From Chthoniobacteraceae bacterium (GTDB taxonomy: Bacteria > Verrucomicrobiota > Verrucomicrobiia > Chthoniobacterales > Chthoniobacteraceae), in the NCBI GenBank assembly GCA_031409655.1, contig JANNXQ010000202.1, forward strand, positions 1-15,231: 15,231 nt of DNA. Direction: 5' to 3'. Below the pieces are notes generated by a model, which saw nothing but the letters and a program-made list of their open reading frames with translations, was not told where the DNA came from and searched no databases. Positions 1-15,231 of this stretch are shown here, in pieces. Both the position numbers and the translations under genes were made by a program. Within the stretch, counting starts at the first letter, position 1, and every line of letters starts with the position of its first letter.

Positions 1-1
1 G

Positions 2-301
2 TGGGGCAAGCTGGTGATGCAAAACCTCGCGTGGACCATCGAGCGCAATGATCTCAAAGTTTACCTCGATGGCCATGCCTCCACCGCGAGTCTGGCCGCG
101 GATGGCGACGGCGCTTACGGCCCCTGGGAGCTGACGGCCGACCGCGCCAACGCGGCCCGGCGGCTGCTCGTAAAATACGCCGTGAATCCCAGGAAGATCG
201 AGCGCGTGAGCGGCTTTGCCGACACCAAGCCCCTCCCCAAACAACCGGGCTCCTCACCGGGCAACGAGCGGATCACGATCAGCCTTTCTCCTCATCGCTA
301 A
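2..301 (+). CDS. MotB-like protein, C-terminal OmpA-like domain (5'-truncated by window edge)
   Basis: Frame is open from base 2 (WGKLVMQNLAW...). Motifs LDGHA, WELTADRANAARRLL, VSGFADTKP and NERITI match the MotB/OmpA_C pattern (GHTD, NWELSxxRA, GYADxxP, NRRV). The N-terminal TM segment is outside the window, so flagellar MotB is not proven. Confidence 0.75.
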   Translation, partial: WGKLVMQNLAWTIERNDLKVYLDGHASTASLAADGDGAYGPWELTADRANAARRLLVKYAVNPRKIERVSGFADTKPLPKQPGSSPGNERITISLSPHR

Positions 302-304
302 CCT

Positions 305-580
305 ATGCTCCAGGACTTTCTCACCGGCCGAACCGCGCTCGACAACAACACCACCGCTCCGGCGCTCGCCACCGCGCGCCCCGGTCAATTTCAGCCTTTC
401 ACCACCGCGCGGGGCACCGATCTCACGAGCCTCGGCGGGCCTGGGCGACGGCCCTCCGCGTCCGAGTCCGAGCTGCTCGAAGCGCCGCAGGTCGAGCTCA
501 TCGAAGACGGCGGTAAAGTGCGCCGCATCGTGGTGACCTGCACCTGCTGCGCGAAGATCGAGATCGAGTGCGAGTACTGA
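305..580 (+). CDS. Small hypothetical protein (91 aa) with C-terminal CxCC-x6-C motif
   Basis: ATG 3 nt after the MotB-like stop. Low-complexity N-terminal half, then a beta-strand-like tail PQVELIEDGGKVRRIVVTCTCCAKIEIECEY. GC-rich third codon positions. Confidence 0.75.
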   Translation: MLQDFLTGRTALDNNTTAPALATARPGQFQPFTTARGTDLTSLGGPGRRPSASESELLEAPQVELIEDGGKVRRIVVTCTCCAKIEIECEY

Positions 581-598
581 GAGTGGTTCGCGAGGCAG

Positions 599-619
599 TC
601 ACCGGAAGGTGATCGTTTC
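599..619 (+). terminator. Possible weak intrinsic terminator/hairpin
   Basis: TCACC-GGAA-GGTGA (5-bp stem, GNRA loop) followed by TCGTTTC, about 20 nt after the stop at 580. Short stem and poor U-tract. Confidence 0.25.
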
Positions 620-711
620 GTCCTCGTCCGCAATCCGCATCCACGATGGGATTCGAGCCGGCGCGCCATTGACGGCACTCCGGCTTGTCTGGGACGCTCC
701 GCGCACCCCCG

Positions 712-2061
712 ATGTTTGGCCTTCTCAAACCGGCGCCTGCGACCGCCCCGCTCCCTCCCGAACGCATCGACGCCGAATACCGGCGCCTCCGCCGACGAGT
801 CTTTGCCGGCATCTTCCTCGGCTACACGGGCTACTACCTCGTCCGCAACAACCTCGCGCTCGCGATCCCGGACATCCTCAAAGCGCACCCGGAATACACC
901 AAGGCCCAGCTCGGCGCTGCGCTCACCGGCCTCTCGCTCGCCTACGGGGCTTCCAAATTTCTCATGGGCACTGTGTCGGATCGCAGCAACCCGCGCTGGT
1001 TCCTGCCAATCGGCCTGCTGCTTTCCTGCGTGATCATGGCCGTGAGCGGCTCCGTAAAGGCGCTCTACACCTCGCTCGCCGCGGTCATCGCCCTGCAGAC
1101 GCTGAATGGCTGGGTGCAAGGCATGGGCTGGCCGCCGTGCGGGAAGACGATGGTCCATTGGTTCAGCACGAAAGAGCGCGGCTTCACCGTCTCGGTCTGG
1201 AACTGCGCCCACAATCTGGGCGGCGCGCTGGTCGCGAATCTGGCGCTGGTCGGCGTGACGCTCTTCCACGATTGGGGCGCGAAATTTTACTTCAACGCGC
1301 TGGTCGCCGCGGTCATCGCCGCGGTGGCCTTTCTGCTCCTGCGCGATACCCCGCAATCCTGCGGCCTGCCACCCATCGAGGAGCATCGCAACGACTACCC
1401 GCCCGGCTACTCTGCGGACCACGAGCGCACCTTCACCTTCCGCGAAATCCTCCTCAGCCACGTGCTGAACAACAAGTTCCTGTGGGCCATCGCGATCGCG
1501 AATGCCTTCGTCTATTTCGTCCGCTACGGCGTCGTGAATTGGATCCCGACCTATCTCGAAACCGCGAAGGGTTTCTCTTTCAAACAAGCGAGCATCGCGT
1601 GGTCGCTCTACGAATACTCCGCGATCCCCGGCACCATCGCGTGCGGCTGGATGTCCGACAAAGTCTTCCAAGGAAAACGCGCGCCGGCCACGATGCTCTT
1701 CATGGGGCTCACCCTCATCGCCGTGCTCGTTTATTGGGGAAATTTGCACGGGCCGCTCTGGATCGATTACGCGGCGCTCATCGCGATCGGCTTCCTGATC
1801 TACGGCCCCATCATGATGATCGGCCTGCACGCGCTGGACCTCGTGCCGAAGAAGGCGGCAGGCACCGCGGCGGGCTTTACGGGGTTCTTCGGTTACGTCT
1901 TCGGTTCGTCCGTCGCCGGCGCGGGCGTCGGCTGGATCGCCGATCAGTTTGGCTGGAATGGCGTCTTCATCGCCATGGTCGGGTGCTGCGTTCTGACCAT
2001 CGTTTTCAGCGCCCTCACGCTCGGGCACCGGGCCGAGAGCGGAGAGCGCCCCGTTTCCTGA
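712..2061 (+). CDS. glpT: Glycerol-3-phosphate:Pi antiporter (MFS, OPA family)
   Basis: GIFLGYTGYYLVRNN, AYGASKFLMG..SDRSNPRWF, QGMGWPPCGKTMVHWFS.KERG, WNCAHNLGG, RDTPQSCGLPPIEE, PKKAAGTAAGFTG are GlpT hallmarks. Start taken at ATG 712 (MFGLLKPAP) rather than TTG 685. Adjacent to glpQ. Confidence 0.95.
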   Translation: MFGLLKPAPATAPLPPERIDAEYRRLRRRVFAGIFLGYTGYYLVRNNLALAIPDILKAHPEYTKAQLGAALTGLSLAYGASKFLMGTVSDRSNPRWFLPIGLLLSCVIMAVSGSVKALYTSLAAVIALQTLNGWVQGMGWPPCGKTMVHWFSTKERGFTVSVWNCAHNLGGALVANLALVGVTLFHDWGAKFYFNALVAAVIAAVAFLLLRDTPQSCGLPPIEEHRNDYPPGYSADHERTFTFREILLSHVLNNKFLWAIAIANAFVYFVRYGVVNWIPTYLETAKGFSFKQASIAWSLYEYSAIPGTIACGWMSDKVFQGKRAPATMLFMGLTLIAVLVYWGNLHGPLWIDYAALIAIGFLIYGPIMMIGLHALDLVPKKAAGTAAGFTGFFGYVFGSSVAGAGVGWIADQFGWNGVFIAMVGCCVLTIVFSALTLGHRAESGERPVS

Positions 2062-2064
2062 CTC

Positions 2065-3054
2065 ATGAAAATTTTCTCCTCCGTCCTGTTGCTCGCCTTT
2101 GCGGCCGCGTCCTGCGCCGCCGCTCCGGTCGTCATCGCGCATCGTGGCGCGAGCGGTTATCTGCCGGAGCACACCCTGCCGGCCAAGGCGCTCGCGCATG
2201 CCATGGGCGCCGACTTCCTCGAGCAGGATCTCGTGCTCACGAAAGACGACGTGCCCATCGTGCTCCACGACATCCACCTCGATACCGTCAGCGATGTCGC
2301 GACGCGCTTTCCGGATCGCCAGCGCGCCGATGGCCGCTACTACGCGCTCGATTTCACACTCGCCGAGATCAGGCAACTGCGGGCCACCGAACGCTTCAGC
2401 GCGAAGACCGGCAAGGCCGCTTTCCTAAAGCGTTTCCCGACCGGGCAATCGTCTTTCTCCATCCCGACCCTCGAGGAAGAGCTGCAGTTCATCGCCGGGC
2501 TGAACCACTCCACTGGACGCCAAGTCGGCATCTATCCGGAGATCAAGCAGCCGGCCTGGCATCGCCAGGAGGGCCACGACATCAGCCGCATCGTCCTGCC
2601 CATCCTGCAAAGTCACGGCTATCGCACCAAGGACGACGCGTGCTTTCTGCAATGCTTCGAGTTCGCAGAAGTGAAACGACTCCGCGGCGAACTCGGCTGG
2701 AAAGGCCGGCTCCTCCAGCTCCTCGGCAGTAAGAAGGGCGACGACGGCACGGACTTCGACTCCCTCCGCAGCCCAGCCGGCCTCGCGGAACTCGCGAAAT
2801 CCGCCGACGGCATCGGCCCGTCGATCAGCAGCCTTTTCACCGGTAAAACGCCCGCCGAACGCCAGCTCACCGATCTCGTGAAAAAGGCTCACGCCGCCGG
2901 CCTGCTCGTCCACCCCTACACCGTGCGCGTCGATGAATTGCCCGCGGCTGTCGCGTCCGTCGAAGAATTGCACCGCGTGCTCTTCAAGGAGGCGCAGGTG
3001 GACGGCGTCTTCACGGATTTCCCCGACGTGACGGTGCAATTTCTCCAGAAATAG
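2065..3054 (+). CDS. glpQ: Glycerophosphodiester phosphodiesterase, exported
   Basis: Signal peptide, then IAHRGASGYLPEHT, ADFLEQDLVLTKD, VLHD, GIYPEIK, VHPYTVR, DGVFTDFPD. Starts 3 nt after the glpT stop. Confidence 0.95.
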   Translation: MKIFSSVLLLAFAAASCAAAPVVIAHRGASGYLPEHTLPAKALAHAMGADFLEQDLVLTKDDVPIVLHDIHLDTVSDVATRFPDRQRADGRYYALDFTLAEIRQLRATERFSAKTGKAAFLKRFPTGQSSFSIPTLEEELQFIAGLNHSTGRQVGIYPEIKQPAWHRQEGHDISRIVLPILQSHGYRTKDDACFLQCFEFAEVKRLRGELGWKGRLLQLLGSKKGDDGTDFDSLRSPAGLAELAKSADGIGPSISSLFTGKTPAERQLTDLVKKAHAAGLLVHPYTVRVDELPAAVASVEELHRVLFKEAQVDGVFTDFPDVTVQFLQK

Positions 3055-3060
3055 CCAGCT

Positions 3061-3148
3061 GACGCTGCGCTAGCATTCCAAGAATGCTGACGTGGAGCGG
3101 AGCGGAACGAACGATGGTAACGCGCGTTTGGAATGCTTGCGCAGCGTC
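3061..3148. repeat. 21-bp inverted repeat (1 mismatch) with 46-nt spacer, REP-like
   Basis: GACGCTGCGCtAGCATTCCAA (3061-3081) versus TTGGAATGCTtGCGCAGCGTC (3128-3148), starting 6 nt after the glpQ stop. Confidence 0.85.
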
Positions 3149-3225
3149 TTCGGGTCGCTGCCTTCTGCCTACTTTTTGAGCACCCTAACATTCTCCCCTC
3201 CCCTCAGCTTCTCCATAGCCGGAAG

Positions 3226-5793
3226 ATGCGCCTCTCCCTCACTCACAGAATTCTTACCTCCATCACCCTCGGCGCAGCGCTTCTCCCCGCTCGCGCCTCG
3301 GCAGCGGAGGACGTGCAACCCTTCCTCGAAGAGTACTGCTTCGATTGCCACGACGCGGACTCAAAAAAAGGCGGGCTCGATCTCACGGCGCTGAAGGCAG
3401 ATTTCTCCACGCCGAAAAACTTTGCCGCGTGGGTGACGGTGCATGATCGCGTGAGCAGTGGAGAGATGCCGCCGAAGAAGAAGGCACGTCCGGAGCCAGC
3501 GGCGGCGAAGAATTTCACCGCTTCGCTCTCGGCCTCACTGGTCGCGACGGAGGAGGCGCAGATCGCCCGCGACGGGCGCTCCACCCAGCGGCGGCTGAAT
3601 CGCTACGAGTATGAAAATGCGCTCCGCGATCTGCTCCACGCGCCGTGGCTGCAGGTCCGCGACGCGCTTCCGGAAGATGGCGAGTCGCACCGCTTCAATA
3701 AAATCGGGGAAGCGCTCGATGTCTCGCATGTGCAGATGGCGCGGTATCTCAGCACCGCCGACTACGCCTTGCGGCAAGTGATGGCACGCAGCGTCGAGCG
3801 GCCGACGACGCAGACCGTGCGCTATTATGCGCGGGACCAGAAATCATTTGCCGGGAAGATGAAGTTCTCGGTGTTCAATCAAAGCCCGGAGCGCGCGACC
3901 TTTCCGCTGCTCGGCACCGTCGGCCAGCCAGAGGTCCGCGCGGGCAAGGCACCGATCACCGTCGGGATGAAAAATCCCGAAGTGCGCGAACAGGAAGCGA
4001 TGGGCGTGGTCGCGAGCAGTTATGAGCCGATCGAGTTGCGGTTCAGTGAATTCGAGGCGCCGGCGGCGGGGCGCTACAAGCTGCGCTTCAGCGGCTACTC
4101 CGTGTGGGTCGGGCCAGGCACGCCGTCGAAGTGGTGGCGGCCGAATCTCGACCACGTCGCACCGGGCCGGCGCCCCGAGCCGGTGACGATCTACTCCGAG
4201 ACGCCGCCGCGGCTGCTGCGTCGGCTGGGAAGTTTCGATGTGACGCCGGAGCCCGCGGTGCAGGAACTCGATGTGCTGCTCCTCGCCGGCGAAACGATCC
4301 GCCCCGATGCCGCGCGGCTCTTCCGCTCGCGCCCGCCGGCTTACCGCAATCCGCTCGCGCAGGAAGACGGGCAGCCGGGTGTGGCCTTCCGCTGGATGGA
4401 AGTGGAGGGGCCGATCCACGACCAGTGGCCGACCGCCGGGCACAAGCTCCTCTTTGGCGATCTGCCGCTGAAAAAGACGAGCGCGGGCGTGGAGGTGACG
4501 TCGAAAAATCCGCGCGCGGATGCGGAGCGGCTGCTCCGGAATTTTCTCCGCCAGGCGTATCGCCAGCCGGTCGCCGAAGCGGAGGTGAAGCGATTTCTGC
4601 CCGTCGTCGAGGGTGCGTTGAAGTCGGGTAGCGGATTCGCGGATGCGATGATTGCCGGCTACACAGCGGTGCTGTGCTCACCGGAGTTTGTCTGTCTGGA
4701 AGAAAAGCCGGGGAAGCTCGACGACCATGCGCTGGCGGCGCGGCTCTCCTTTTTCCTCTGGAATACCGCGCCGGACGACGAGCTCCGTGCGCTCGCGACG
4801 AATGGCCAGGTCCACGAGCCCGCCGTGCTGCGCGCGCAGACCGAGCGGCTGCTGAGCGATCCGAAGTCACGGCGCTTCGTCGAGGCCTTCCTCGACTACT
4901 GGCTCGATCTCCGCCGCATGGTCGCCACGTCGCCGGACTCCGCGCTCTATCCCGACTACTACCTCGACGATCTGCTCACCGAATCGGCGCAGGAGGAGAC
5001 GCTGCTCTTTTTCACCGAGCTGCTGCGCAAGGATCTGTCGGCGCGGAATCTCATCACTTCCGACTTCGCGATGCTCAACGAGCGGCTCGCGCAGCATTAC
5101 GGCCTGCCGCCAGTCGGAGGTGTCGCGTTGCAGCGCGTGAGCCTGCCCAAGGACAGTCCGCGCGGCGGTCTGATGACCCAGGCCAGCGTGCTGAAGGTGA
5201 CGGCCAATGGCACCACGACCTCACCCGTCGTGCGCGGCGCGTGGATCATGGAGCGCGTCCTTGGCCTGCCGCCTCCGCCACCGCCCGCGAGCGTTCCCGC
5301 CGTGGAGCCGGACACGCGCGGCGCGACGACGATCCGCCAGCAACTCGACAAGCACCGGAATCAGGAGACGTGCGCGGCGTGCCACGAGAAGATCGATCCG
5401 GCGGGCTTTGCGCTGGAAAATTTCGACGTGCTCGGCGGCTGGCGGGATCACTACCGCGCACTTTCGGAAGGCGCCGAAGCCACGCCCGGCATCGGGCACA
5501 ATGGCCAGCCTTTCACGTTCCATCAAGGCCCGCCGGTGGACCCGAGCGGCCAGCTCCCGGACGGGCGGAAATTCAGCGACGTCCGCGAACTCAAACAGCT
5601 CCTGCTCGAAAACGAGAAGCAAGTCGCCCGCAATCTCGCTCGTCAGTTCACCGTGTACGCCACCGGCTCGGCGGTGCGCTTCGCGGATCGCGCGGAGATC
5701 GAGCAGGTACTCGAGCACGCCAGTGCCAAAGAATTCGGAGTTCGTAGCCTCATCCACGAAGTCGTGCAGAGCGAACTCTTCCGAAACAAGTAA
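3226..5793 (+). CDS. PVC-type DUF1592/DUF1588/DUF1587/DUF1595/DUF1585 (PSD/PSCyt) protein with two haem-c motifs
   Basis: Sec-type signal from ATG 3226. CFDCH (3337-3351), [70 protein letters not shown] (5371-5385)..[12 protein letters not shown]. The ORF-track start at 3133 overlaps the inverted repeat and is less likely. Confidence 0.9.
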
Positions 5794-5807
5794 GCGACCC
5801 GTTCACC

Positions 5808-7118
5808 ATGAATCCCTCGTCCTTTATCTCCACCCAGCGCGCCCTGTCCCGCCGCAGCTTCCTGCGTGGCGCGGGCATCGTCCTCTCGCTCCCTTTCCTC
5901 GAAGCGATGCGGCCCGCTTTTGCCCGCGCGGCAACGGCAGCGACACCGCGGCGGATGCTCGGGATCTGCAACAATCTCGGGCTCGTGCCGGAGTTCTTTT
6001 TCCCCAAGGAAAGCGGACGCGGCTACAAGGCCTCGGAGTATCTCGAGCACCTCGAAGCGCATCGCGAGGACTTCACCGTCTTCAGCGGCGTGTGGCATCC
6101 CGACGTGGACGGCGGGCACCCGGCGGACAACTGCTTCCTGACCGCCGCGCCGCATCCGGGCAGTGGCGGCTTTCGCAACACGATCTCGCTCGATCAATAC
6201 CTCGCCGAGCGCATCGGCCACCTCACGCGCTTCCCTTCGCTCACGCTCGGCGTGAATGTGCAGCAGGGCATGCGTAGTCTGTCGTGGACGGGCTCGGGGG
6301 TGCTCATTCCCTGCGAGGAAAAGGCGGCGGACGTCTTCAAGCGCATGTTTATGCAAGGGACGAAGGCGGAGATGCAGACGCAGATGCACAAGCTGCAGCT
6401 CGGCGAGAGCATTCTCGACGCGGTGGCCGGCCAGGCGAAGGACCTCCAGCGCACCGTCGGCACGCGCGACCGCGAGCGGCTCGATCAGTATTTCACTAGC
6501 GTGCGCGACCTCGAGCAGCGGATGAAGATGTCGCGCGAGTGGGAGCGCAAACCGAAGCCGGTGGTGAAAGCGCCCGTGCCGCTCGATCCCGAAAGCCCGC
6601 GCGAGTACATGGAGAAGGTGAAGCTGATGTACGACATGGCGCGGCTGGCCTTTGAGACGGACTCCACGCGCTCGGTTTCCCTGCTCCTCGACAGCGTTAA
6701 CTCCCCCGCCATCGAGATCGAAGGCGAGCACATCACCGACGGCTACCACAACCTCTCGCACCACGGAAAATCCGAGAAGAAGCTGAGCCAGCTCAAGGCC
6801 ATCGACGAATGGCACATGAAGCTGCTGGCGAACCTTTTCTCCGAACTCAAGAGCGTGCAGGAAGGCGGCGAGACGCTGCTCGATCGCACGATGATCCTCT
6901 ACGGCTCGAACCTCGGCAACGCGAACACCCACGTGACGACGAATCTGCCCACGCTCTTCGCCGGCGGCGGCTTCCGGCACGGCCAGCACCTCGCCTTCGA
7001 CACCGAGCACAACTATCCCCTGCCGAATCTTTTCGTCTCGATGCTCCAGCGGATGGGGATCGAAGCGGAGAAGTTTGCCAGCAGCACCGGGACGATGCGC
7101 GGGTTGGAGATGGCCTGA
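5808..7118 (+). CDS. DUF1552 (HXXSHH) family protein, Tat-exported
   Basis: Twin-arginine [58 protein letters not shown]. Usual partner of DUF1592 genes, 14 nt downstream. Confidence 0.92.
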
Positions 7119-7187
7119 GCCGAGCCCGATTCGCCCAGCTTCTGAGGGCTTGCGCTCGCGGGGTGCCTTTGCAACCTTCCCCGCCCT

Positions 7188-8027
7188 ATGTCGTCCAGCC
7201 CCACCGAAACTCCGACCGAAACCGAGGCCGGATTCGACGCCCACACGTTCTGGATCCTGCACAAGAGCAAGGTCCTCCTGCTGGCGGGGCTTTTCGTGGT
7301 CGCGCTCGGCGCCTTCGGAATTTCAGAATGGTCGCGGCGCAAGACGATCGAGGAATCCGGGCGGCTGCTCGCCAACGCCAAGACGGACGATGCCTACCGG
7401 GCGGTCATCACGAAGCATCCAAAGTCCATGGCCGCCGCCAGCGCGCTGCTGCTGCTTGCGGACAGCCTGCGGACCAGCGGCAACGCCGACGACTCAACGG
7501 CGCAACTGAAGACTTTCATGGAACGCTTTCCCGCGCACCCGCTGGCGAGTGGCGCGCTGACGAGCCTCGGGGCAAATCAGGAAGCCCAAGGCAAAACGGA
7601 CGAAGCGCTCACGACGTATCAAAAGGTGATCAGCTCGCATCCGACGAGTTTCAGCGCCCCTTTCGCCCTGCTCGCCCAAGCCCGGTTGCTCAAGGGCCAG
7701 GGGAAAGTGGACGACGCCAAGCGCATCTACGAGCAAGTCATTCAGCAGTATCAGGGCACGGCTTTCGGGCAGGAAGCAACGGGCGAAAATCAGAAGCTCG
7801 CCAAGCCAACGCCACCACCTGCGCCCGCGCCGGCAGTTGAGGCAAAACCCGAGGCCACGACACCCCCGGTGACCACGCCCGCGCCGAGCGCCGAGCCAGC
7901 GAAGCCCGCCACGCCAACTCCGGTTCCCGCAAGCGAGGCTCCGCAGCCAGCGGCTCCCACCCCGCCGAAGGCAGCGCCAGCAGAGGCCGCGAAGCCGGCG
8001 CCGTCCGCGGAGCCAGCAAAGCCGTAG
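7188..8027 (+). CDS. Membrane-anchored tetratricopeptide-repeat protein (YfgM-like) with Pro/Ala-rich tail
   Basis: FW..HK, then one TM helix (VLLLAGLFVVALGAFGI), helical repeats with 'F..HP.A..AL..LG...E.QGK.DEA..Y..V' pattern, and a long P/A/T/E/K-rich tail. Confidence 0.8.
   Translation: MSSSPTETPTETEAGFDAHTFWILHKSKVLLLAGLFVVALGAFGISEWSRRKTIEESGRLLANAKTDDAYRAVITKHPKSMAAASALLLLADSLRTSGNADDSTAQLKTFMERFPAHPLASGALTSLGANQEAQGKTDEALTTYQKVISSHPTSFSAPFALLAQARLLKGQGKVDDAKRIYEQVIQQYQGTAFGQEATGENQKLAKPTPPPAPAPAVEAKPEATTPPVTTPAPSAEPAKPATPTPVPASEAPQPAAPTPPKAAPAEAAKPAPSAEPAKP
7878..8024 (+). repeat. Duplicated peptide PAPSAEPAKP in the TPR-protein tail
   Basis: Identical 10-aa unit encoded at 7878-7907 and 7995-8024 with synonymous codon differences. 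Confidence 0.8.
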
Positions 8028-8176
8028 TTCGAGACAAGCCCGGCCAAACCGGTGAACCGCCCGGGTGATTTGGTAAAGCGGCGCGCTCCCCACCCCACGA
8101 GACCGCCTCGGGCTTCGGCGCGTCGGGCTCGCATCGCGCGCCGCGGTTCCCTAATCATCCTACCCCCCTGTCCCCT

Positions 8177-9250
8177 ATGAAGAAGCCTTGGAAAATCGCC
8201 GGCCTCAATTTCGACCACTTTCACATGGGCGATCTGTTGCAAATGGCGCACGAGCATCCGCAGGCGGAGATCGTAGGCATCTTTGACGAACAACCGGCGC
8301 GGATGGAAGCGGCAGCGCGCGCGCATGGGCTGCAGAGCGACCGTGTTTTCACCGACTACCGTGCGTGTCTGGAGACGACGCGCCCCGACGTGGTGATCCT
8401 CTGCCCGGCGGCGACGGAGCACGGGTTGTGGACGACACGCGCGGCGGAATACGGCGTGCATGTGCTGATGGAGAAGCCCTTCGCCGGGTCGCTTGCCGAG
8501 GCGGATGAAATGATCGCGGCGCAGGCCGCGACGGGAAAGCTCCTGGCGATCAATTGGCCGCTCCGTTGGCTGCCCGTCTCGGTGACGGCGAAGCGGCTCC
8601 TCGATGAAGGTGTGATCGGCGAGGTGCTCGAGTTTCACCACTACGGCGGCAATCGCGGCCCGCTCTACCACGCGGCCGGAAAAGTGGAACTCACGCCCAC
8701 GGCGGCGGACAAGGCGGGGAGTTGGTTCTACAGTCGCGCGCGCGGCGGCGGCTCGCTCCTCGATTACGCGGGCTACGGATCGACGCTCGGCACGTGGTAT
8801 CAAGGTGGGCGCAAGCCGCTCGAGGTCACATGCGTGGTGGACGAGCCCGCGGGGCTCGAGGTGGACGAGCACAGCATCACCATCTGCCGCTACGCCCACG
8901 GCCTCTCGAAGATCGAGACCCGCTGGGGCACTTTCACCGATCCGTGGACGCAGCAGCCGACTCCCGCCTGCGGCTTCCAGATCGTGGGCACGGAGGGGAC
9001 GATCGCCGCGTTTGATTACGAGGCGCGTCTGCGGGTCCAGACGAGGACCCAGCCGGAAGGCGTTGCGGTCCCAGTCGATGAGGTGCGCGCGCCTTTCCAG
9101 GACCCTGTGCAATTTCTCCTCCACGTGCTGGAGGGCGGCGCGTGGCAGGGCGACCCGCTCCATCCGGAGATCTCGCGCATCGGCCAGCAGATCGTCGATA
9201 GCGCCGCGCTCAGCGCCCGGGAAAAGCGGACAGTCGCGCTGCTCGGGTGA
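8177..9250 (+). CDS. Gfo/Idh/MocA family oxidoreductase
   Basis: PDVVILC, HVLMEKP, INWP, LLDEGVIGEV, GGGSLLDYAGY, IVGTEGTI motifs; 357 aa. Substrate unknown. Confidence 0.9.
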   Translation: MKKPWKIAGLNFDHFHMGDLLQMAHEHPQAEIVGIFDEQPARMEAAARAHGLQSDRVFTDYRACLETTRPDVVILCPAATEHGLWTTRAAEYGVHVLMEKPFAGSLAEADEMIAAQAATGKLLAINWPLRWLPVSVTAKRLLDEGVIGEVLEFHHYGGNRGPLYHAAGKVELTPTAADKAGSWFYSRARGGGSLLDYAGYGSTLGTWYQGGRKPLEVTCVVDEPAGLEVDEHSITICRYAHGLSKIETRWGTFTDPWTQQPTPACGFQIVGTEGTIAAFDYEARLRVQTRTQPEGVAVPVDEVRAPFQDPVQFLLHVLEGGAWQGDPLHPEISRIGQQIVDSAALSAREKRTVALLG

Positions 9251-9251
9251 G

Positions 9252-9327
9252 CCAATGGTGAATGGTGACTCGTGATTGGCGAATCGGAGCAGGCCCCTTC
9301 CATTCACCAGTCACTCATCACCATGCA
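9252..9327. repeat. Inverted arrays of degenerate heptamers (consensus TGAATGG / CCATTCA)
   Basis: CCAATGG TGAATGG TGACTCG TGATTGG CGAATCG (9252-9286), a 13-nt spacer, then CCATTCA CCAGTCA CTCATCA CCATGCA (9300-9327). Lies between two convergent stop codons. Confidence 0.85.
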
Positions 9328-9338
9328 CACCCGCAGCA

Positions 9339-10037
9339 CTACCCGGCCATTGGGCGGTAGATCTTCGTCGTGCCGTTGACGGGATCGATCTGGAGCGTGA
9401 AAAAGTTCGCCGGTGGACGCAGCGTGCCGTCCACCTTCTCGGGCTTATCATTCGAGCCGTGCAAAGTGATGAACCATTGGCTGGCTGGTCCCAGCGTCGT
9501 CGAGCCATCGGGCAGGAAGCGGAAGGAAACGTAGTCGTACTGCTTCTTGATGCCGCGCGGGAGTTCCACGGCGGACTTGTCATTCTTCACCTCATCGGCC
9601 GTGACGATCGCCGAGAGCTTGCGATCGATGATCGTCGAGACACTGGACTCGGCATCGTCGGGACTGGAGCCGATCATCACGGAGAGCGGCAACTCCTCCA
9701 ACTTGCCCAGAGGCAGCGCCGCACCCGAGGAGAGCACCTCGAAAACCTGGAGCGCGCGGAACTGGCCCTTCTCGGGCTTCGTGACATCTTCACCGGGCGT
9801 GTCGGGATCGGAGAAGCGGTAGAAGCGCACCTCGACGGTGGCGTTTTTGCTCAGCGCAAATTGACGGGCCAGGTTCATCTGATCCACGAGCATCTGGGAG
9901 GCCTGGGTGAGGCTGGAGCCCTGGAGCATGGAGTTGACAGCGGGCACCGAAAAAGCGGCGAGAATCGCAATGACGGCGATGACGACGACGAGTTCGACGA
10001 GCGAAAAGGCGCGCGAGCGTGAGGGGGAGATAGTCAT
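9339..10037 (-). CDS. Verru_Chthon cassette protein D-like, prepilin-type N-terminal cleavage/methylation domain
   Basis: RA|FSLVELVVVIAVIAILAA type IV pilin-like N-terminus. ARQFALSKNATVEVRFY, YVSFRFLPDGST and NFFTLQIDPVNG..KIYRP match my recollection of the TIGR02596 family. Confidence 0.85.
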   Translation of the reverse strand: MTISPSRSRAFSLVELVVVIAVIAILAAFSVPAVNSMLQGSSLTQASQMLVDQMNLARQFALSKNATVEVRFYRFSDPDTPGEDVTKPEKGQFRALQVFEVLSSGAALPLGKLEELPLSVMIGSSPDDAESSVSTIIDRKLSAIVTADEVKNDKSAVELPRGIKKQYDYVSFRFLPDGSTTLGPASQWFITLHGSNDKPEKVDGTLRPPANFFTLQIDPVNGTTKIYRPMAG

Positions 10038-10137
10038 GGGGCGAAACGGATCAGAGGATCACGAATGTTTACAATGTATTGGCAGCGGACGGGGGCCTTG
10101 GCAAGTGGAGAGTCGGTGCATTCGCGGCCTGCGCTTC

Positions 10138-10166
10138 TTGCATGTTCGCTCCCGAGCCCGCACCCT
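10138..10166 (+). promoter_or_regulatory. Putative sigma70-type promoter for the permease operon
   Basis: TTGCAT-N17-CACCCT, 53 nt upstream of ATG 10220. The -10 matches the consensus only at A2 and T6. Confidence 0.35.
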
Positions 10167-10219
10167 AGCGCCTCTTTTTCCCACAAAGACTCTCCGCCGC
10201 GCAGACTCTCTCCCTTCCG

Positions 10220-11236
10220 ATGCCCTACTGGTTCTCGTTTCACTTTCAGGACTTCGCGTTTTCGTTCCTCAGCATTCTCCTGGAAGGGGTGCCTTTCGTG
10301 CTCCTCGGGTCGCTGATCTCCGGGGTCGTCGATGTCTTTGTCTCCTCGGAGCGCGTAGCGCGGATGCTCCCGAAAAACCAGGGCGTGGCCATCGTGCTCA
10401 GCGGCTTGCTCGGCCTCATCTTTCCGATGTGCGAATGCGGGAGCGTCATCGTCATCCGGCGCTTCATCCGCAAAGGGCTGCCGCTCGGCTGCGCGGTGAC
10501 CTATATGCTCGGCGCGCCCATCGTGAGCCCGATCGTGGCGTTGAGCACCTTTGCCGCATTCAAAGGACAGGATCCGCTGATGGTCACGGCGCTCCGGCTC
10601 GGCATCGGCTTTGCCCTGGCGGTTTTCGTCGGTTTCATCGTGCGGGGACTGCCACGGGCGGCGATTTTGCAGCCGGCGATGTTGGGTGAAGCGGGACGGC
10701 AGCGGGCTGGGTTGAGCGTCGCGCCGGAGCCGGCGATGCAGGAATTTTCCGCCGCTGCGGAGAAGGCCCCGCTCGGTCGCAAGCTGCTGCTCGCGATGCA
10801 ATCGGCGACCGCGGATTTCCTCGATGTCACCTTCTTCCTGATCATCGGCGCTGCGATCGCGAGCGTCTTCAATACGGCCGTGAATCAGGAAGTCATCCTG
10901 CCCTTTGCCCAGCATCAGCCGACGGCGATCGTGTCCATGATGATCCTCGCAGGCGGACTCGCCCTGTGCAGCACCACGGACGCTTTCATCGCCGCCACCT
11001 TTGTGGCCTTCGCCCTGCCCGCGAAGCTCGCCTTCCTGCTCTTCGGCCCGATGTTCGACGTGAAACTTTTCTGGCTCTACGGCCTCGTCTTCAAGCGCCG
11101 CGCCGTTGCGCTGCTCGGGCTGGGGCTCTTCATCGCCATCGGCCTCATCTGCTGGCAGCTCTCGTCGCTAGAGCTGGACGAGCGCCTGCCGGTGCTCCCG
11201 CAGCCCGCCTTTGATTCCGCGAAACCTTCGCCTTAA
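10220..11236 (+). CDS. Predicted permease, DUF318/ArsP_1 (YcgR/YraQ-like)
   Basis: FLSILLEGVPFVLLG, FPMCECG..VIRR..RKG, TYMLGAPIVSP, LCSTTDAFIAA, LAFLLFGPMFDVK; multiple TM helices in two repeats. Confidence 0.88.
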   Translation: MPYWFSFHFQDFAFSFLSILLEGVPFVLLGSLISGVVDVFVSSERVARMLPKNQGVAIVLSGLLGLIFPMCECGSVIVIRRFIRKGLPLGCAVTYMLGAPIVSPIVALSTFAAFKGQDPLMVTALRLGIGFALAVFVGFIVRGLPRAAILQPAMLGEAGRQRAGLSVAPEPAMQEFSAAAEKAPLGRKLLLAMQSATADFLDVTFFLIIGAAIASVFNTAVNQEVILPFAQHQPTAIVSMMILAGGLALCSTTDAFIAATFVAFALPAKLAFLLFGPMFDVKLFWLYGLVFKRRAVALLGLGLFIAIGLICWQLSSLELDERLPVLPQPAFDSAKPSP

Positions 11237-11254
11237 ACTGCCTGCGCACCGCCC

Positions 11255-12157
11255 ATGAACACCCTTTTCTCCCGCTGGCTGCCCTGTGCCACTCTCACCA
11301 CCTGGAGCGCGATCCTGCTCACGGTCTTTTACACTGGCCGCGTGCGCGCGCTGCTCGCGCCGGAATTCCACCCCGGCGTGCTCATCGCCGGGATCGTCAT
11401 GGCCTTGATGGCCCTCGTCTTTCTCCTCCTGCCAGTCGATGCGGGCTGCTGTTCGGCCACCGATTGCAGCCACTCGCTCTCCCGCCTCGCTTCCGGGAAA
11501 ATCCTCACCTTCCTGATGTTGCTCTTGCCGATCAGCGCCGCCGCCGTTTTCTCGCCGGAAGGTTTCAGTGCAAACTTGGTGAAGAATCGCGGCCTGATCA
11601 CCGACGTGACCCAGCTCGGTGGCTCCGCGCGCTTCAATCCTGCGCCTCCCGAAATGCCGCTGCCGGGCAAAGACGCGACTCCGCCGGCCGCGCCCGATGC
11701 GCCCGGCGATGCGGCCACCCCGTCAGTCGCCGCCGCCGCGCCCGCGCCTGCCCAGCCTGCCGAGATGGCCCCCGGCGATTATCTTCAGCGCACCGCCGAC
11801 GGCACGATCATGGCCGAGGTCCTCGACCTCCTTTACGCTGCGCAGGACAACACCCTCCGAAAAGATTTTGAGGGGAAGAAGATCGAACTCATCGGCCAGC
11901 TCATGCCCGACCCCGCAGCGACCGCCGGAGGCAAACGCTTCAAGGCCGTGCGCATGTTCATGACCTGCTGCGCCGCGGATGCGCGCCCGATCGCCGCCGC
12001 CATCGAATCCGCCGAACTCCCGAGCTTCCCGGAGATGACGTGGATCAAAATCACCGGCACCTCGACCTTCCCGATCGAGAATGGCCGCCGCATCTCCGTG
12101 CTGCAGGCCGACAAGGTCGAGAAGACCACGCCTCCGGAGGAGTCGATGCTCTATTGA
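11255..12157 (+). CDS. DUF1980 / TIGR03943 (YcgQ-like) membrane protein, putative permease partner
   Basis: Three N-terminal TM helices, then FEGKKIELIG, RMFMTCCAADA, TWIKITG and a C-terminal P..P....Y ending. 18 nt downstream of the DUF318 permease, the usual arrangement. Confidence 0.85.
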   Translation: MNTLFSRWLPCATLTTWSAILLTVFYTGRVRALLAPEFHPGVLIAGIVMALMALVFLLLPVDAGCCSATDCSHSLSRLASGKILTFLMLLLPISAAAVFSPEGFSANLVKNRGLITDVTQLGGSARFNPAPPEMPLPGKDATPPAAPDAPGDAATPSVAAAAPAPAQPAEMAPGDYLQRTADGTIMAEVLDLLYAAQDNTLRKDFEGKKIELIGQLMPDPAATAGGKRFKAVRMFMTCCAADARPIAAAIESAELPSFPEMTWIKITGTSTFPIENGRRISVLQADKVEKTTPPEESMLY

Positions 12158-12160
12158 ACC

Positions 12161-12275
12161 CCGGGAGCGCCGCCGTCCCGTGCGGCATCGCCCCGTGCGC
12201 GCGAAGCGCGACTGAAACGAAGAGGCGCTGCGCGGAGGGCGAGGGATGCCGCACGGGGACGGCGGCGCTCCCAGG
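12161..12275. repeat. Long GC-rich inverted repeat (REP-like), probable bidirectional terminator
   Basis: GGGAGCGCCGCCGTCCC-GTGCGGCATC (12163-12189) pairs with GATGCCGCACGGGGACGGCGGCGCTCCC (12245-12272) with one bulged base, plus an imperfect inner stem. Fills the gap between convergent stops at 12157 and 12285. Confidence 0.9.
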
Positions 12276-12284
12276 AAGCAGGCT

Positions 12285-13445
12285 CTACGTTTGGGCCGTG
12301 GCTGCGGGCGTCGCGTCGCGGTGGGTGGGCTCGGGTTTTCCGGGGCGGAAATGTTCGAGGTGATCGAGCTCGGCGGTGAGGCCGGGAAAGCGGATGGCGA
12401 GGGCGGCGACGGCGTCGCGGACGGCGTCGCGGAGGGCTTCAGGGGAGGCTTCGGCGCGGGCGTTGACGATGAGCTGGCCGCCGGTCACCGGGGCTTCGAG
12501 CGAGAGCGAGAGTTCGGGGACGAAATCGCTACGGACGAGATTGATCGCGGCGATGTCGCCGAGTCCGTCGTCAGGGCTGAGGGTCATTTTCAAGTGCGCG
12601 ATTTCTGCCGGAGCAAGGCGCTGCTGGATGTCGCTGGCGAGTGTTTTCAGGACAGCGTCGGAGTCGAAGCCGGTGGGGTGAGCGAGCTGCACGGTGGCGT
12701 TCAACCAGCCAAGCAGGGCCTCGCCTTCCGCGTAAATTTCGTAGTCCACTTCCATCGTCGTGCGAGCCTGCTGCTCGCTGGCCGCGAGGCGCTCGAACCA
12801 TTCGGCGACGCCGCGATTTTCCCGGACCGAGACGGCGAGGATTTCCGCGTGGGGAAACTCCGCCTGGAGCCGTGCTCGCAGTTGATCGAGCGCCGGCGCG
12901 TCGAGCAGTTCGCTCTTCGAGATGACGATGAGGTCGGCCTCCTCGAGCTGTTTGCGGTAGATGTAGAGGACTTTTTCGGAGAAGCGTCCGCCTTCCGCGA
13001 GGCCGAAGATGCGGGCGGCGCGGACGGGATCGACGAGCACGCTGAGCGGCGCGATGGCGAAGCGATCGCCGTAGATACGCCGCAGGGGATAGGTGACCGT
13101 GGCCACGAGATCGGTGCAGCTCCCGACCGGTTCGGCGATGAAGACATCGGGGCGCGTGGTCTCGTCGAGTTTGCCGGCAGCATCGACGAGCGAATTGAAC
13201 CGGCAGCAAAAACAGCCGCCGGGAATCTCCTCCGTGGCAAAGCCTTTCGAGCGCAGCATCGCGGTATCGACGAGTTCGCTGCCCTGGTCATTCGTGATCA
13301 GCCCGACGCGCGCACCCTGCCGGACCAGATGCTGCGCGAGCGCGGCGACGGCGGTCGTTTTCCCTGCGCCGAGAAAGCCGCCGATCATGATGTAGCGAGC
13401 GCGGGCGGATTTCAGATTGGGGATTTCGGATTTCAGATTGGTCAT
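12285..13445 (-). CDS. CobW/HypB/UreG (G3E, COG0523-related) P-loop GTPase, putative metallochaperone
   Basis: Walker A GGFLGAGKTT, ITNDQG..LVD, GGCFCC (Cys at 13203-13214), EPVGSC, KQLEEADLIVISKSE. ATG 13445 overlaps the upstream TGA (ATGA). The ORF-track start at 13652 lies inside the upstream gene. Confidence 0.9.
   Translation of the reverse strand: MTNLKSEIPNLKSARARYIMIGGFLGAGKTTAVAALAQHLVRQGARVGLITNDQGSELVDTAMLRSKGFATEEIPGGCFCCRFNSLVDAAGKLDETTRPDVFIAEPVGSCTDLVATVTYPLRRIYGDRFAIAPLSVLVDPVRAARIFGLAEGGRFSEKVLYIYRKQLEEADLIVISKSELLDAPALDQLRARLQAEFPHAEILAVSVRENRGVAEWFERLAASEQQARTTMEVDYEIYAEGEALLGWLNATVQLAHPTGFDSDAVLKTLASDIQQRLAPAEIAHLKMTLSPDDGLGDIAAINLVRSDFVPELSLSLEAPVTGGQLIVNARAEASPEALRDAVRDAVAALAIRFPGLTAELDHLEHFRPGKPEPTHRDATPAATAQT
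13407..13441. repeat. Five tandem heptamers inside the GTPase 5' end
   Basis: GGATTTC AGATTGG GGATTTC GGATTTC AGATTGG, encoding [12 protein letters not shown] on the minus strand. Confidence 0.85.
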
Positions 13446-13903
13446 GGGGATTCGTGGTGCTCCTGCTTTTCGAGAATGCGATCGATGGTCGTGTCGAGCA
13501 GCGCGCGGTAGGTGGCAAGGTCGCAGCATTTTGCATCGGGCGTGCCGTCCACGAGGTAGAGCCAGCCGGCGCCATACGGATCTTCGCCCACGGCCTCGAT
13601 CCGTTTGCCCAGCTCCGCATTGCCCCCGGCAAACTTTCCATCCGCCACGCAATAGATATCGCTGATCGCTTTGAAGCCTTCGATCGAACCGATGATCTCA
13701 CCGCTGGTCACCGTGTCGCCGGGCTTTTTCTCAAACTGCAAATCGACGATCTCTCCGAGCATCCGCGTCGCGAATTTCGTGAAACCCACGCGCCACGGGC
13801 CGTCCGCCTCGCGGGCCAGCCAGAAGTGCGACGGGCTGTAGAGACACTCGGTCGGGAGATGGGTGACGAAGTTGCTGCGCTTGTAGAAAGAGGTGGCCGA
13901 CAC
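13442..13903 (-). CDS. Glycine cleavage H-protein-like lipoyl-carrier protein (stand-alone, divergent)
   Basis: LP...[40 protein letters not shown] (lipoyl-Lys equivalent at 13670-13672), [13 protein letters not shown]. Start assigned to GTG 13903 (153 aa); the longer 273-aa ORF runs antisense into pyrH. Confidence 0.85.
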
Positions 13904-14066
13904 GGTTTTTGGGGATGCCGAAGGACTACGCGGGAACCGCGAAGGTCGTGAAGTCTTATCAACAAGCAACGCTGATGGTGGGGAACGAGAAAGTCCGCGC
14001 GTCGCCGCCCGCTGCGGCACATTTCCCCTTCCCATCGCGGGGGGCATTCGCTTCCATCGGCGCGCG

Positions 14067-14816
14067 ATGCCGAAGCCCAAGACCAAAGCCCAAAAACCGA
14101 AGCCAAAATTCCGTCGCATCGTCCTGAAGATCAGCGGGGAAGCGCTCAAAGCGAAGGGTAGCGGCGACGTCATCTCACCAGAAATCGTGCGCCAAATCTG
14201 CGAGCAGATTCGCGAAGTCCACGCCATGGGCGTGCAGATCGCGGTGGTGGTGGGTGGGGGCAATATCTGGCGCGGGCTTTCGGCCAGTCATCGTGGGATG
14301 GAGCGGACGACGGCGGACTACATGGGCATGCTCGCGACGGTCATCAATGGCATGGCGTTGCAAAGTCAGCTCGAGGCGCTGGGCGTGGTGACGCGCGTGC
14401 AGACGGCGATCCACATGGAAAATATCGCCGAGCCCTTCATCCGTCGGCGCGCCATGCGGCACCTTGAACTCGGCCGCGTCGTCATCTTTGTCGCTGGCAC
14501 GGGCAACCCGTTCTTTTCCACCGATACGACCGCAGCTTTGCGCGCCAACGAGATCGGTGCGGAGGTCATTTTGAAAGCGACGAAAGTGGACGGCATCTAC
14601 ACCGCCGACCCGATGAAAGATCCGAAGGCGAAGCGCTACGACCGCCTGACCTTTAGCGACGCGCTTTCCCAGCGGCTCTCCGTCATGGATTCCACGGCCT
14701 TCAGCTTGTGCCTGGACAATAGAATGCCGATCATTGTCTTCGACTTGATGACCCCCGATAACATCAAGAACGTCGTCCTCGGCCGGAAGGTCGGGACCCT
14801 CGTCAGCGACACCTAA
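14067..14816 (+). CDS. pyrH: Uridylate kinase
   Basis: [65 protein letters not shown]. Start at ATG 14067 with a short Lys/Pro-rich extension. Confidence 0.97.
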
Positions 14817-14860
14817 AGTGCCGCGTCAGACCGCTCCGACAGAAACTTTACCCCACATTT

Positions 14861-15231
14861 ATGGACCCCGATGAAATCCTCCTCGATACCGAGGCCACCA
14901 TGGAGAAAGGCTTCGACTACATGGCTCACGAGTTTGCCGCGGTGCGCACCGGCAAGGCCTCGCCGGCGCTCGTGGAAAACATCGATGTGGAATGCTACGG
15001 AGCGATGATGAAGCTCAAACAAGTGGCCCTCATCACCACGCCCGAGCCGCGCCTGCTCGTCATCCAGCCCTTTGACACCGCCACGGTGCAGGCCATCGAA
15101 AAGGCGATCAAGGAATCGAAGATCGGCATCAATCCCGCGGTGGATGGGAAGATCATCCGGCTCCCCATCCCGCAGCTCAGCGAAGAGCGCCGCAAGGATC
15201 TCGTGAAAAGCATCAAGCAGATGGCCGAGGA
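14861..15231 (+). CDS. frr: Ribosome recycling factor (3'-truncated by window edge)
   Basis: Not in the ORF track because it has no stop in the window. Translates MDPDEILLDTEATMEKG...EFAAVRTGKASPALVE..V.CYG..LKQVA..PEPRLLVIQPFD..IEKAI..GINP..DGKIIRLPIPQLSEERRKDLVK. Follows pyrH. Confidence 0.97.
   Translation, partial: MDPDEILLDTEATMEKGFDYMAHEFAAVRTGKASPALVENIDVECYGAMMKLKQVALITTPEPRLLVIQPFDTATVQAIEKAIKESKIGINPAVDGKIIRLPIPQLSEERRKDLVKSIKQMAE

Follow-up and report, generated by a model that had tools for sequence, protein, structure and literature searches.

A predicted lipoyl carrier and its partner G3E GTPase as the putative helper arm of an uncharacterised terpenoid cluster, with an apparent arsenic link of the GTPase subfamily

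What does a protein resembling the glycine-cleavage H protein do when its gene overlaps that of a GTPase and no glycine-cleavage gene is nearby? The question is raised by two genes on a contig of a Chthoniobacteraceae bacterium (Verrucomicrobiota; assembly GCA_031409655.1, contig JANNXQ010000202.1), of which positions 1 to 15,231 are referred to below as the window. The upstream gene, H (13442..13903, minus strand, GTG start), encodes a 153-aa GcvH paralogue and predicted lipoyl carrier, as judged from its open reading frame (ORF), profile matches and conservation. The downstream gene, G (12285..13445, minus strand), encodes a 386-aa COG0523-like two-domain G3E GTPase, placed by ORF, profiles, fold and gene contexts in an unnamed arsenic-associated subfamily. 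The stop codon of H and the start codon of G overlap in an ATGA (13442..13445, minus strand), which suggests translational coupling. Both ORFs and their overlap lie where an earlier note on this DNA, made from the sequence alone, had placed them. The identity of H to one orthologue was 93/93/70% at codon positions 1/2/3 and the 4-nt overlap was retained in 50 of 69 paired loci, so that both are real coding genes. We propose that the pair forms the helper arm of a so far uncharacterised cluster of terpenoid genes; what is new here is an apparent link of the G subfamily to arsenic, which the earlier note did not foresee.

Among the best 80 genome loci of G, retained out of 514 candidates and including one pair of duplicates (L107 and L108), H is located directly upstream of G in 69, and of the 11 loci without it there, two have hardly any sequence upstream; the pairing is therefore conserved in related genomes, as the earlier note had supposed. 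Downstream of G are genes for a small four-cysteine protein (in 53 of the 80 loci), a 2x[4Fe-4S] ferredoxin, a radical S-adenosylmethionine (SAM) enzyme and a fusion of DUF116 with polyprenyl synthase (the latter within 6 kb in 29 of the 80), as well as for a prenyltransferase-fold protein and a squalene-hopene-cyclase-like ('SHC-like') enzyme. A NifS-type cysteine desulfurase is encoded divergently beside H in 54 of the 69 paired loci. Beyond Verrucomicrobiota, the cluster contexts come from unassigned metagenome contigs only, since an attempt to enter another phylum by way of G349 led back to matches already known from Verrucomicrobiota. In the window's own genome all seven partner genes are present (55–80% identity), scattered over contigs C105, C32, C30, C167 (the cyclase orthologue) and C300. 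The claim of a stand-alone, complete two-gene system was consequently not upheld, since seven further cluster genes occur in relatives and are dispersed in this genome; judged from conserved gene order, H-G is the putative carrier-and-chaperone arm, here detached, of a cluster that comprises about nine genes, is conserved and probably makes a cyclic isoprenoid.

The distribution of these genes was further surveyed in 151 genomes of the class, which are related and hence not independent, with thresholds set so as to leave out canonical paralogues. G was found in 25 genomes and the cyclase in 25, with 21 shared; the H subtype of the window (type A) was detected in 13 genomes, another (second) H subtype in 7 and the radical SAM enzyme in 14. 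All 20 genomes bearing H of either subtype have G, and 19 have the cyclase. These counts bear on the view that H and G form a self-contained two-gene system with no tie to the terpenoid genes. The pair does stand alone in the window's genome and in several close relatives (e.g. L037-L039, L043, L045), its overlap is tightly conserved and co-folding lends the contact weak support (see below), yet the full cluster in many relatives, the seven partners in this genome and the near-constant presence of the cyclase in H-bearing genomes make such a system very unlikely, and it has largely been refuted by co-occurrence.

Of the cluster enzymes, the cyclase keeps the DxDD motif, is about 600 aa long, scores below the SHC cut-off and has the polyprenyl synthase nearby; it had no match in plasmid records. 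The prenyltransferase-fold protein is nearest to the beta subunits of geranylgeranyltransferase/farnesyltransferase (GGTase/FTase), and the radical SAM enzyme has three invariant auxiliary cysteines (C269/C288/C328). The small cysteine protein has a flavodoxin-like fold and gave no structural match at E<=0.001 (HdrA, 7bkd, at E 0.055; best VIA Z 6.5), and an Atlas search with it returned only unnamed clusters; a resemblance of this protein to the N-terminal domain of HdrA is tentative.

Other versions of the cluster were also observed. The second H subtype belongs to one with a different, B12-domain-like radical SAM enzyme (L127, L128, L138), encoding in addition a pyrroloquinoline quinone (PQQ)-type propeller, a divergent H with the lysine kept, a fused Cys-ferredoxin protein, the cyclase, polyprenyl synthase, a prenyltransferase-fold protein and, in L127 and L128, a GT4 glycosyltransferase. 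A third version (L129, L130) comprises radical SAM enzyme, cyclase and polyprenyl synthase, with no H-like gene found in the stretch. A variant radical SAM enzyme (NF045502) adjoins G in two separate lineages (L110, 7185-8285; L123, 10053-11180).

H passes the gathering cut-off of PF01597 (69.9 vs 22.2 bits) and falls below the equivalog cut-off of TIGR00527 gcvH (73.5 vs 115.85 bits), and also below those of the Chlamydial H-like TIGR03077 (17.7 vs 144.05) and GcvH_rel_desulf NF045810 (33.1 vs 150 bits). In homologue alignments Lys78 of its EGFK motif (codon 13670..13672, minus strand) aligns with the lipoyl lysine of canonical GcvH, present as ESVK in the genome's own copy, and is kept in 121/121 close homologues and 84/84 paired orthologues; H is predicted to be a lipoyl carrier modified at this residue. 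An N-terminal YKRSxF extension and a C-terminal helix are specific to the subfamily. Since the canonical gcvH of this genome adjoins gcvT on contig C89 and gcvP is located on C300, H, which is 28% identical to that GcvH, is classified on sequence grounds as a GcvH paralogue and not a glycine-cleavage H protein. A separate canonical gcvTHP set, for which the earlier note had suggested looking, is thus present, and its supposition that H does not serve glycine cleavage holds. Its statement that gcvT, gcvP, lipA and lplA are missing from the unit also stands, none having been recognised among the window proteins scanned (eight in one scan, five in another), and the genome's gcvT, gcvP, lipA and LplA/LipM-like ligase are all on contigs other than the window's. 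One could still regard H as a spare glycine-cleavage H or lipoyl-relay protein for central metabolism and G as a chance neighbour: the GcvH fold and lysine are kept, and on C300 only some 5 kb separate gcvP from the gene orthologous to the cluster desulfurase. Besides the canonical gcvH beside gcvT, the low identity and the score under the equivalog cut-off, however, the type-A H is confined to 13 of the 151 genomes and always accompanied by G, which makes this explanation improbable in the extreme.

H proteins that act outside glycine cleavage include LbpA of sHdr sulfur oxidation and GcvH-L of sirtuin/macrodomain operons. Like these, H would be a dedicated GcvH-fold lipoyl carrier for a non-glycine-cleavage pathway; unlike theirs, its gene is surrounded by those for terpenoid enzymes, Fe-S proteins and a GTPase. 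In the gene lists read, none for sHdr, sirtuin or macrodomain proteins was recognised beside H, no search with reference sequences having been made.

G matches PF02492 (83.3 bits, cut-off 20.7), and misses the NCBIfam cut-offs of CobW (48.8/332 bits), ZigA (41/600), YjiA (34.7/361), CobW_rel_Se (74.4/180), HypB (42.7/121) and MeaB (31.2/241). It possesses a Walker A motif (GFLGAGKT) and a CxCC motif (GGCFCC). The CFCC residues (Cys78, Cys80 and Cys81; 13203..13214, minus strand), a COG0523-type metal site in homologue alignments, are invariant in 84/84 paired orthologues and kept in 114-118 of 124 members of the wide family. The same alignments revealed an extra subfamily cysteine, Cys110 of EPVGSC (13116..13118, minus strand), which is present in 117 of the 124 and common to the copies from arsinothricin-type clusters. 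The genome's ordinary COG0523 paralogue has no Cys at the aligned position and is without the subfamily motifs, namely NDQ replacing NE.G and DYxxYAxGExxLGWLN. The structure model of G (pLDDT 95.4) consists of a G-domain and a YjiA-like C-terminal alpha/beta domain. YjiA was the best match both by sequence and in Foldseek (368 columns, E 3e-13), with a TM score of 0.35-0.42 and a root-mean-square deviation of 20 A, and the domains are therefore differently placed in G. With 850 clusters at 50% identity (E<=1e-30) the family is a wide one, to which an Atlas search using G contributed nothing beyond generic CobW-domain clusters. A TGA flagged in G002 as a possible selenocysteine codon was found to be a normal stop. 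The accessible literature, with subscription papers and bioRxiv supplements outside its scope, held no description of this subfamily, of an arsenic-linked G3E GTPase or of the H-G pairing.

In comparison with COG0523 proteins (YjiA, ZigA, CobW, ZNG1), G is thus alike in GFLGAGKT, CxCC and domain architecture, and differs in its scores under the named cut-offs, its subfamily motifs and Cys110. It further differs in its neighbours, which are arsenic and terpenoid genes and not known Zn/Co clients.

Full-length G relatives occur on 37 plasmid records (28-38% identity, many near-identical to one another), and five of six inspected loci are ArsM/ArsL or ars clusters with an aquaporin gene beside G. 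Priestia and Bacillus plasmids encode ArsL-aquaporin-G-VcpD together with ArsN1 and ars genes, an Alicyclobacillus plasmid has the same core (its aquaporin detected via tblastn), a Pantoea plasmid carries ArsL...ArsM-G-aquaporin and an Enterobacter plasmid ArsM-G-aquaporin. In Verrucomicrobiota and unassigned contigs, G was seen between ArsR and an aquaglyceroporin (MIP) as ArsR-G-MIP, and G occurs without any H in arsenic operons. Fusions comprise MIP::G (P0266, P0367, P0305), G::ArsF beside ArsG, ArsI::G and ArsR::G. In locus L103 a 679-aa MIP::G fusion lies within an intact terpenoid cluster, and its G part is 67% identical to that of the window. Families f19 and f65 likewise have a member of this MIP clade within their terpenoid cluster, which makes three lineages in all; in genomes where it occurs without G, it is located beside ArsM, ArsM+ArsS, ArsC or ArsR-ArsC in four out of five. 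G is paired with two separate MIP clades. In L040 and L046, from two genomes labelled Chthoniobacteraceae and near the window G on the tree, ArsR is divergent to H-G, in one of the two together with a second MIP clade. The G-adjacent ArsR proteins retain an N-terminal Cys and a C-terminal CC, which by analogy we take to be an As(III) site. On the G tree the arsenic label requires eight changes, at least five of these being forced by well-supported branches, in a quick IQ-TREE analysis of 46 rows hand-picked from 196 (FastTree was run over all rows). The G subfamily, which has no name, recurs in ars operons and in those of the arsinothricin type.

Several further loci of G relatives deserve mention. 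Besides aquaporin, G and (in Bacilli) VcpD, the plasmid clusters L235-L239 (Enterobacter, Alicyclobacillus, Priestia, Bacillus, Pantoea) encode an ATP-grasp ligase and a carboxymuconolactone-decarboxylase-like protein, and these extended arsinothricin-type clusters may make a peptide-linked organoarsenical. A 737-aa fusion of an ArsI/CadI domain with the GTPase (L179, L180, 5978-8191) has a Cys-rich tail and is encoded near ArsR and a PiT-family transporter. A PadR-family regulator, possibly a further metalloid sensor, is upstream of or fused to G in L245, L246, L248 and P0307, with Cys-rich ends in L245 and L246. In L099 (2037-7110), ArsR, a pstSCAB phosphate ATP-binding cassette (ABC) transporter and G form a single run, which suggests an arsenate/phosphate link.

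What, then, might an arsenic-associated GTPase do in a terpenoid cluster? Lipoyl dithiols are a classical target of trivalent arsenic. Because a cysteine-rich GTPase tied to arsenite channels is here joined to a dedicated lipoyl carrier, G may act as a GTP-driven As(III) exchanger; that it binds arsenite via its cysteines and exchanges As(III) with the lipoyl dithiol of H is the reading we prefer, at about even odds. The fuller and more tentative reading, to which we assign a probability of roughly one in four, is that the SHC-like cluster of Planctomycetes-Verrucomicrobia-Chlamydiae (PVC) bacteria makes an arsenic-bearing cyclic polyprenoid, with As(III) loaded by an arsenite-specific G3E GTPase onto a dedicated lipoyl carrier and offered by the latter to a radical SAM or prenyltransferase-fold enzyme for C-As bond formation. 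For the preferred reading of an As(III) exchange, the following steps are envisaged. H would receive its lipoyl group through LipA and the housekeeping ligase, or else the sulfur for it would come from the cysteine desulfurase of the cluster. As(OH)3 would enter through an aquaglyceroporin, encoded in the operon in a few lineages and elsewhere in most, and would be caught by Cys78/80/81/110 of G, which would pass it, at the cost of GTP, to dihydrolipoyl-H (Lys78). The latter would present As(III) to the radical SAM enzyme or the prenyltransferase-fold protein for formation of a C-As bond on a polyprenyl chain, with electrons from the Cys protein and ferredoxin, the lipoyl arm of H taking the place of the arsenite-holding RCCLKC tail of ArsL. 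The chain itself would be built and cyclised by the polyprenyl synthase and the SHC-like cyclase. In a reverse variant, G would strip arsenite off a poisoned lipoyl arm and so protect the pathway. Loading of arsenic as a substrate is slightly favoured over stripping because the channel, without an arsenate reductase, stands in a biosynthetic operon, as it does in ArsL and ArsS clusters.

The earlier note had proposed H as a client or partner of G. Co-folding of H with G scored 0.39 (three runs: 0.39, 0.01 and 0.52) against 0.00 for the best control, with contact agreement of at least 44% and partner pLDDT of at least 81; of 157 solved complexes 116 reached this mark, as did 2 of 215 mismatches, but only 18 of the 157, alongside the two mismatches, did so with scores of 0.60 or lower. 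The models thus lend weak support to a direct contact, with H as a possible client.

A number of observations weigh against H as the client, against arsenic as the cargo, or both. One of the three co-folding runs scored 0.01. P0285 is a fusion of G with the Cys-ferredoxin protein, and 3 of 13 genomes have H together with the radical SAM/Fe-S genes and G on another contig; for these reasons H may not be G's client. Among loci with flanks of at least 1.4 kb, an arsenic gene was found near G in only 7 of 88 H- or cluster-linked loci compared with 19 of the 31 that had neither H nor cluster (these counts exclude the plasmid loci and 63 others with short flanks, and the loci are not independent). 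The window itself holds no arsenic gene. ArsM was detected in only 3 of 20 H-bearing genomes (15 of 151 overall), and known dimethylarsinoyl lipids would require it. The cluster radical SAM enzyme is without an RCCLKC tail and has no significant similarity to ArsL. Relatives of G also occur in other settings: a distant one is flanked by genes for an MtaA/CmuA methyltransferase on one side and for an AcsV corrinoid activator on the other (L120, 4489-10489), and a Leptolinea copy (28% identity) has a non-arsenic context. In the accessible parts of the respective texts, arsinothricin is described as made by ArsL and ArsM with no GTPase mentioned (PMC8552651), the RCCLKC tail of ArsL is described as holding As(III), again without mention of a GTPase (10.1101/2024.02.01.577332), and a G-type GTPase likewise goes unmentioned in 10.1101/2022.07.06.499078.

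As the main rival explanation, G would instead be a general thiol-metal or Fe-S maturation factor, as COG0523 proteins are for Zn, Co or Fe, that was recruited separately into ars loci, the terpenoid being arsenic-free. Its clients would be the Cys protein/ferredoxin, the radical SAM enzyme or the DUF116 domain, and H a lipoyl redox or sulfur shuttle from the desulfurase to the radical SAM enzyme. The CxCC site and the YjiA-like two-domain fold agree with such a role, as do the P0285 fusion, the desulfurase beside H in 54/69 loci, the invariant auxiliary cysteines of the radical SAM enzyme, the absence of an arsenic gene from 81/88 cluster-linked loci, the corrinoid context in L120 and the clients of COG0523 proteins listed in the accessible part of PMC11672702. 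It leaves unexplained, however, why three lineages should have an aquaglyceroporin of arsenic operons within the cluster, in one case as a fusion with a 67%-identical G, why G relatives are fused to ArsI and ArsF and paired with two unrelated MIP clades, and why G scores far below the cut-offs of all named Zn/Co/Ni subfamilies. We regard this explanation as a substantial possibility, short of even odds.

The arsenic-loading reading finds a parallel in arsinothricin-type clusters (PMC8552651; 10.1101/2024.02.01.577332, both accessible in part), since plasmid ArsL/ArsM clusters of this kind hold a full-length G relative and an aquaporin. Arsinothricin-type radical SAM chemistry on thiol-held As(III) would be the model for the putative C-As step. 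The two systems differ in that this genome gave no match to ArsL at 1e-8 and the cluster radical SAM enzyme is of another class; furthermore, as far as the accessible texts go, the Burkholderia cluster needs no GTPase and arsinothricin-type clusters are without lipoyl carrier and terpenoid enzymes. Arsenic genes of the window's genome include an arsenosugar-type pair of ArsM followed by an ArsS-like radical SAM enzyme (G000:C272:17447-19565), MIP-ArsC on C257, Acr3 on C21 and ArsR beside a PiT-family gene on C131.

The cyclase was likened, by description, to the 'SHC-like' clade of PMC7306690 and PMC12324236, with which it shares DxDD, a length of about 600 aa, a nearby polyprenyl synthase and occurrence in Verrucomicrobiota. 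In their accessible text, these two papers assign no function to the clade and note a polyprenyl synthase in its vicinity, make no mention of an H-like carrier, GTPase, radical SAM enzyme or arsenic, and acknowledge its product as an open question in lipid-biomarker work. According to the accessible part of 10.1101/2021.03.22.436501, the isoprenoid arsenolipids known are ascribed to algae, and bacteria are suspected as sources of arsenolipids in the environment but have not been identified as such. In the accessible part of PMC11672702, a cargo or client is known for few of the bacterial COG0523 GTPases. If arsenic is indeed loaded as proposed, G would be the first metalloid-delivering G3E GTPase and H the first lipoyl arm to carry arsenic on purpose, and the cluster would provide a bacterial route to a new class of arsenolipids. 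Even with an arsenic-free terpenoid, the G subfamily may have escaped notice as a chaperone of arsenite, or may serve to repair lipoyl groups that arsenite has poisoned.

As to the surroundings of the pair, pyrH is divergent and upstream of H-G, as the earlier note had described, and adjoins G solely in loci of the window's own genome. On the other side, an ArsP_1/UPF0718 permease (PF03773) and a TIGR03943/DUF1980 protein are encoded convergently with G (10220-12157, plus strand), and this permease pair is found beside G only in the window, L037 and L143. A functional tie of H-G to these flanking genes was rejected on account of this distribution. The large hairpin between the permease pair and G (12160..12275, no strand assigned), examined by BLAST and a terminator scan, is a palindromic, GC-rich repeat some 115 nt long, of which BLAST found 170 pieces on 72 contigs of the genome, both orientations counted, and it was not called in the scan. 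As a dispersed repeat resembling repetitive extragenic palindromes or miniature inverted-repeat transposable elements (REP/MITE-like), it is neither a dedicated terminator nor a specific part of the system; the hairpin seen in the earlier note is real, and its value as a boundary proving the operon complete is lost. Finally, in a region of the G N-terminus that is not conserved, an exact 15-nt direct repeat (13406-13441) gives rise to the peptide NLKSEIPNLKS.

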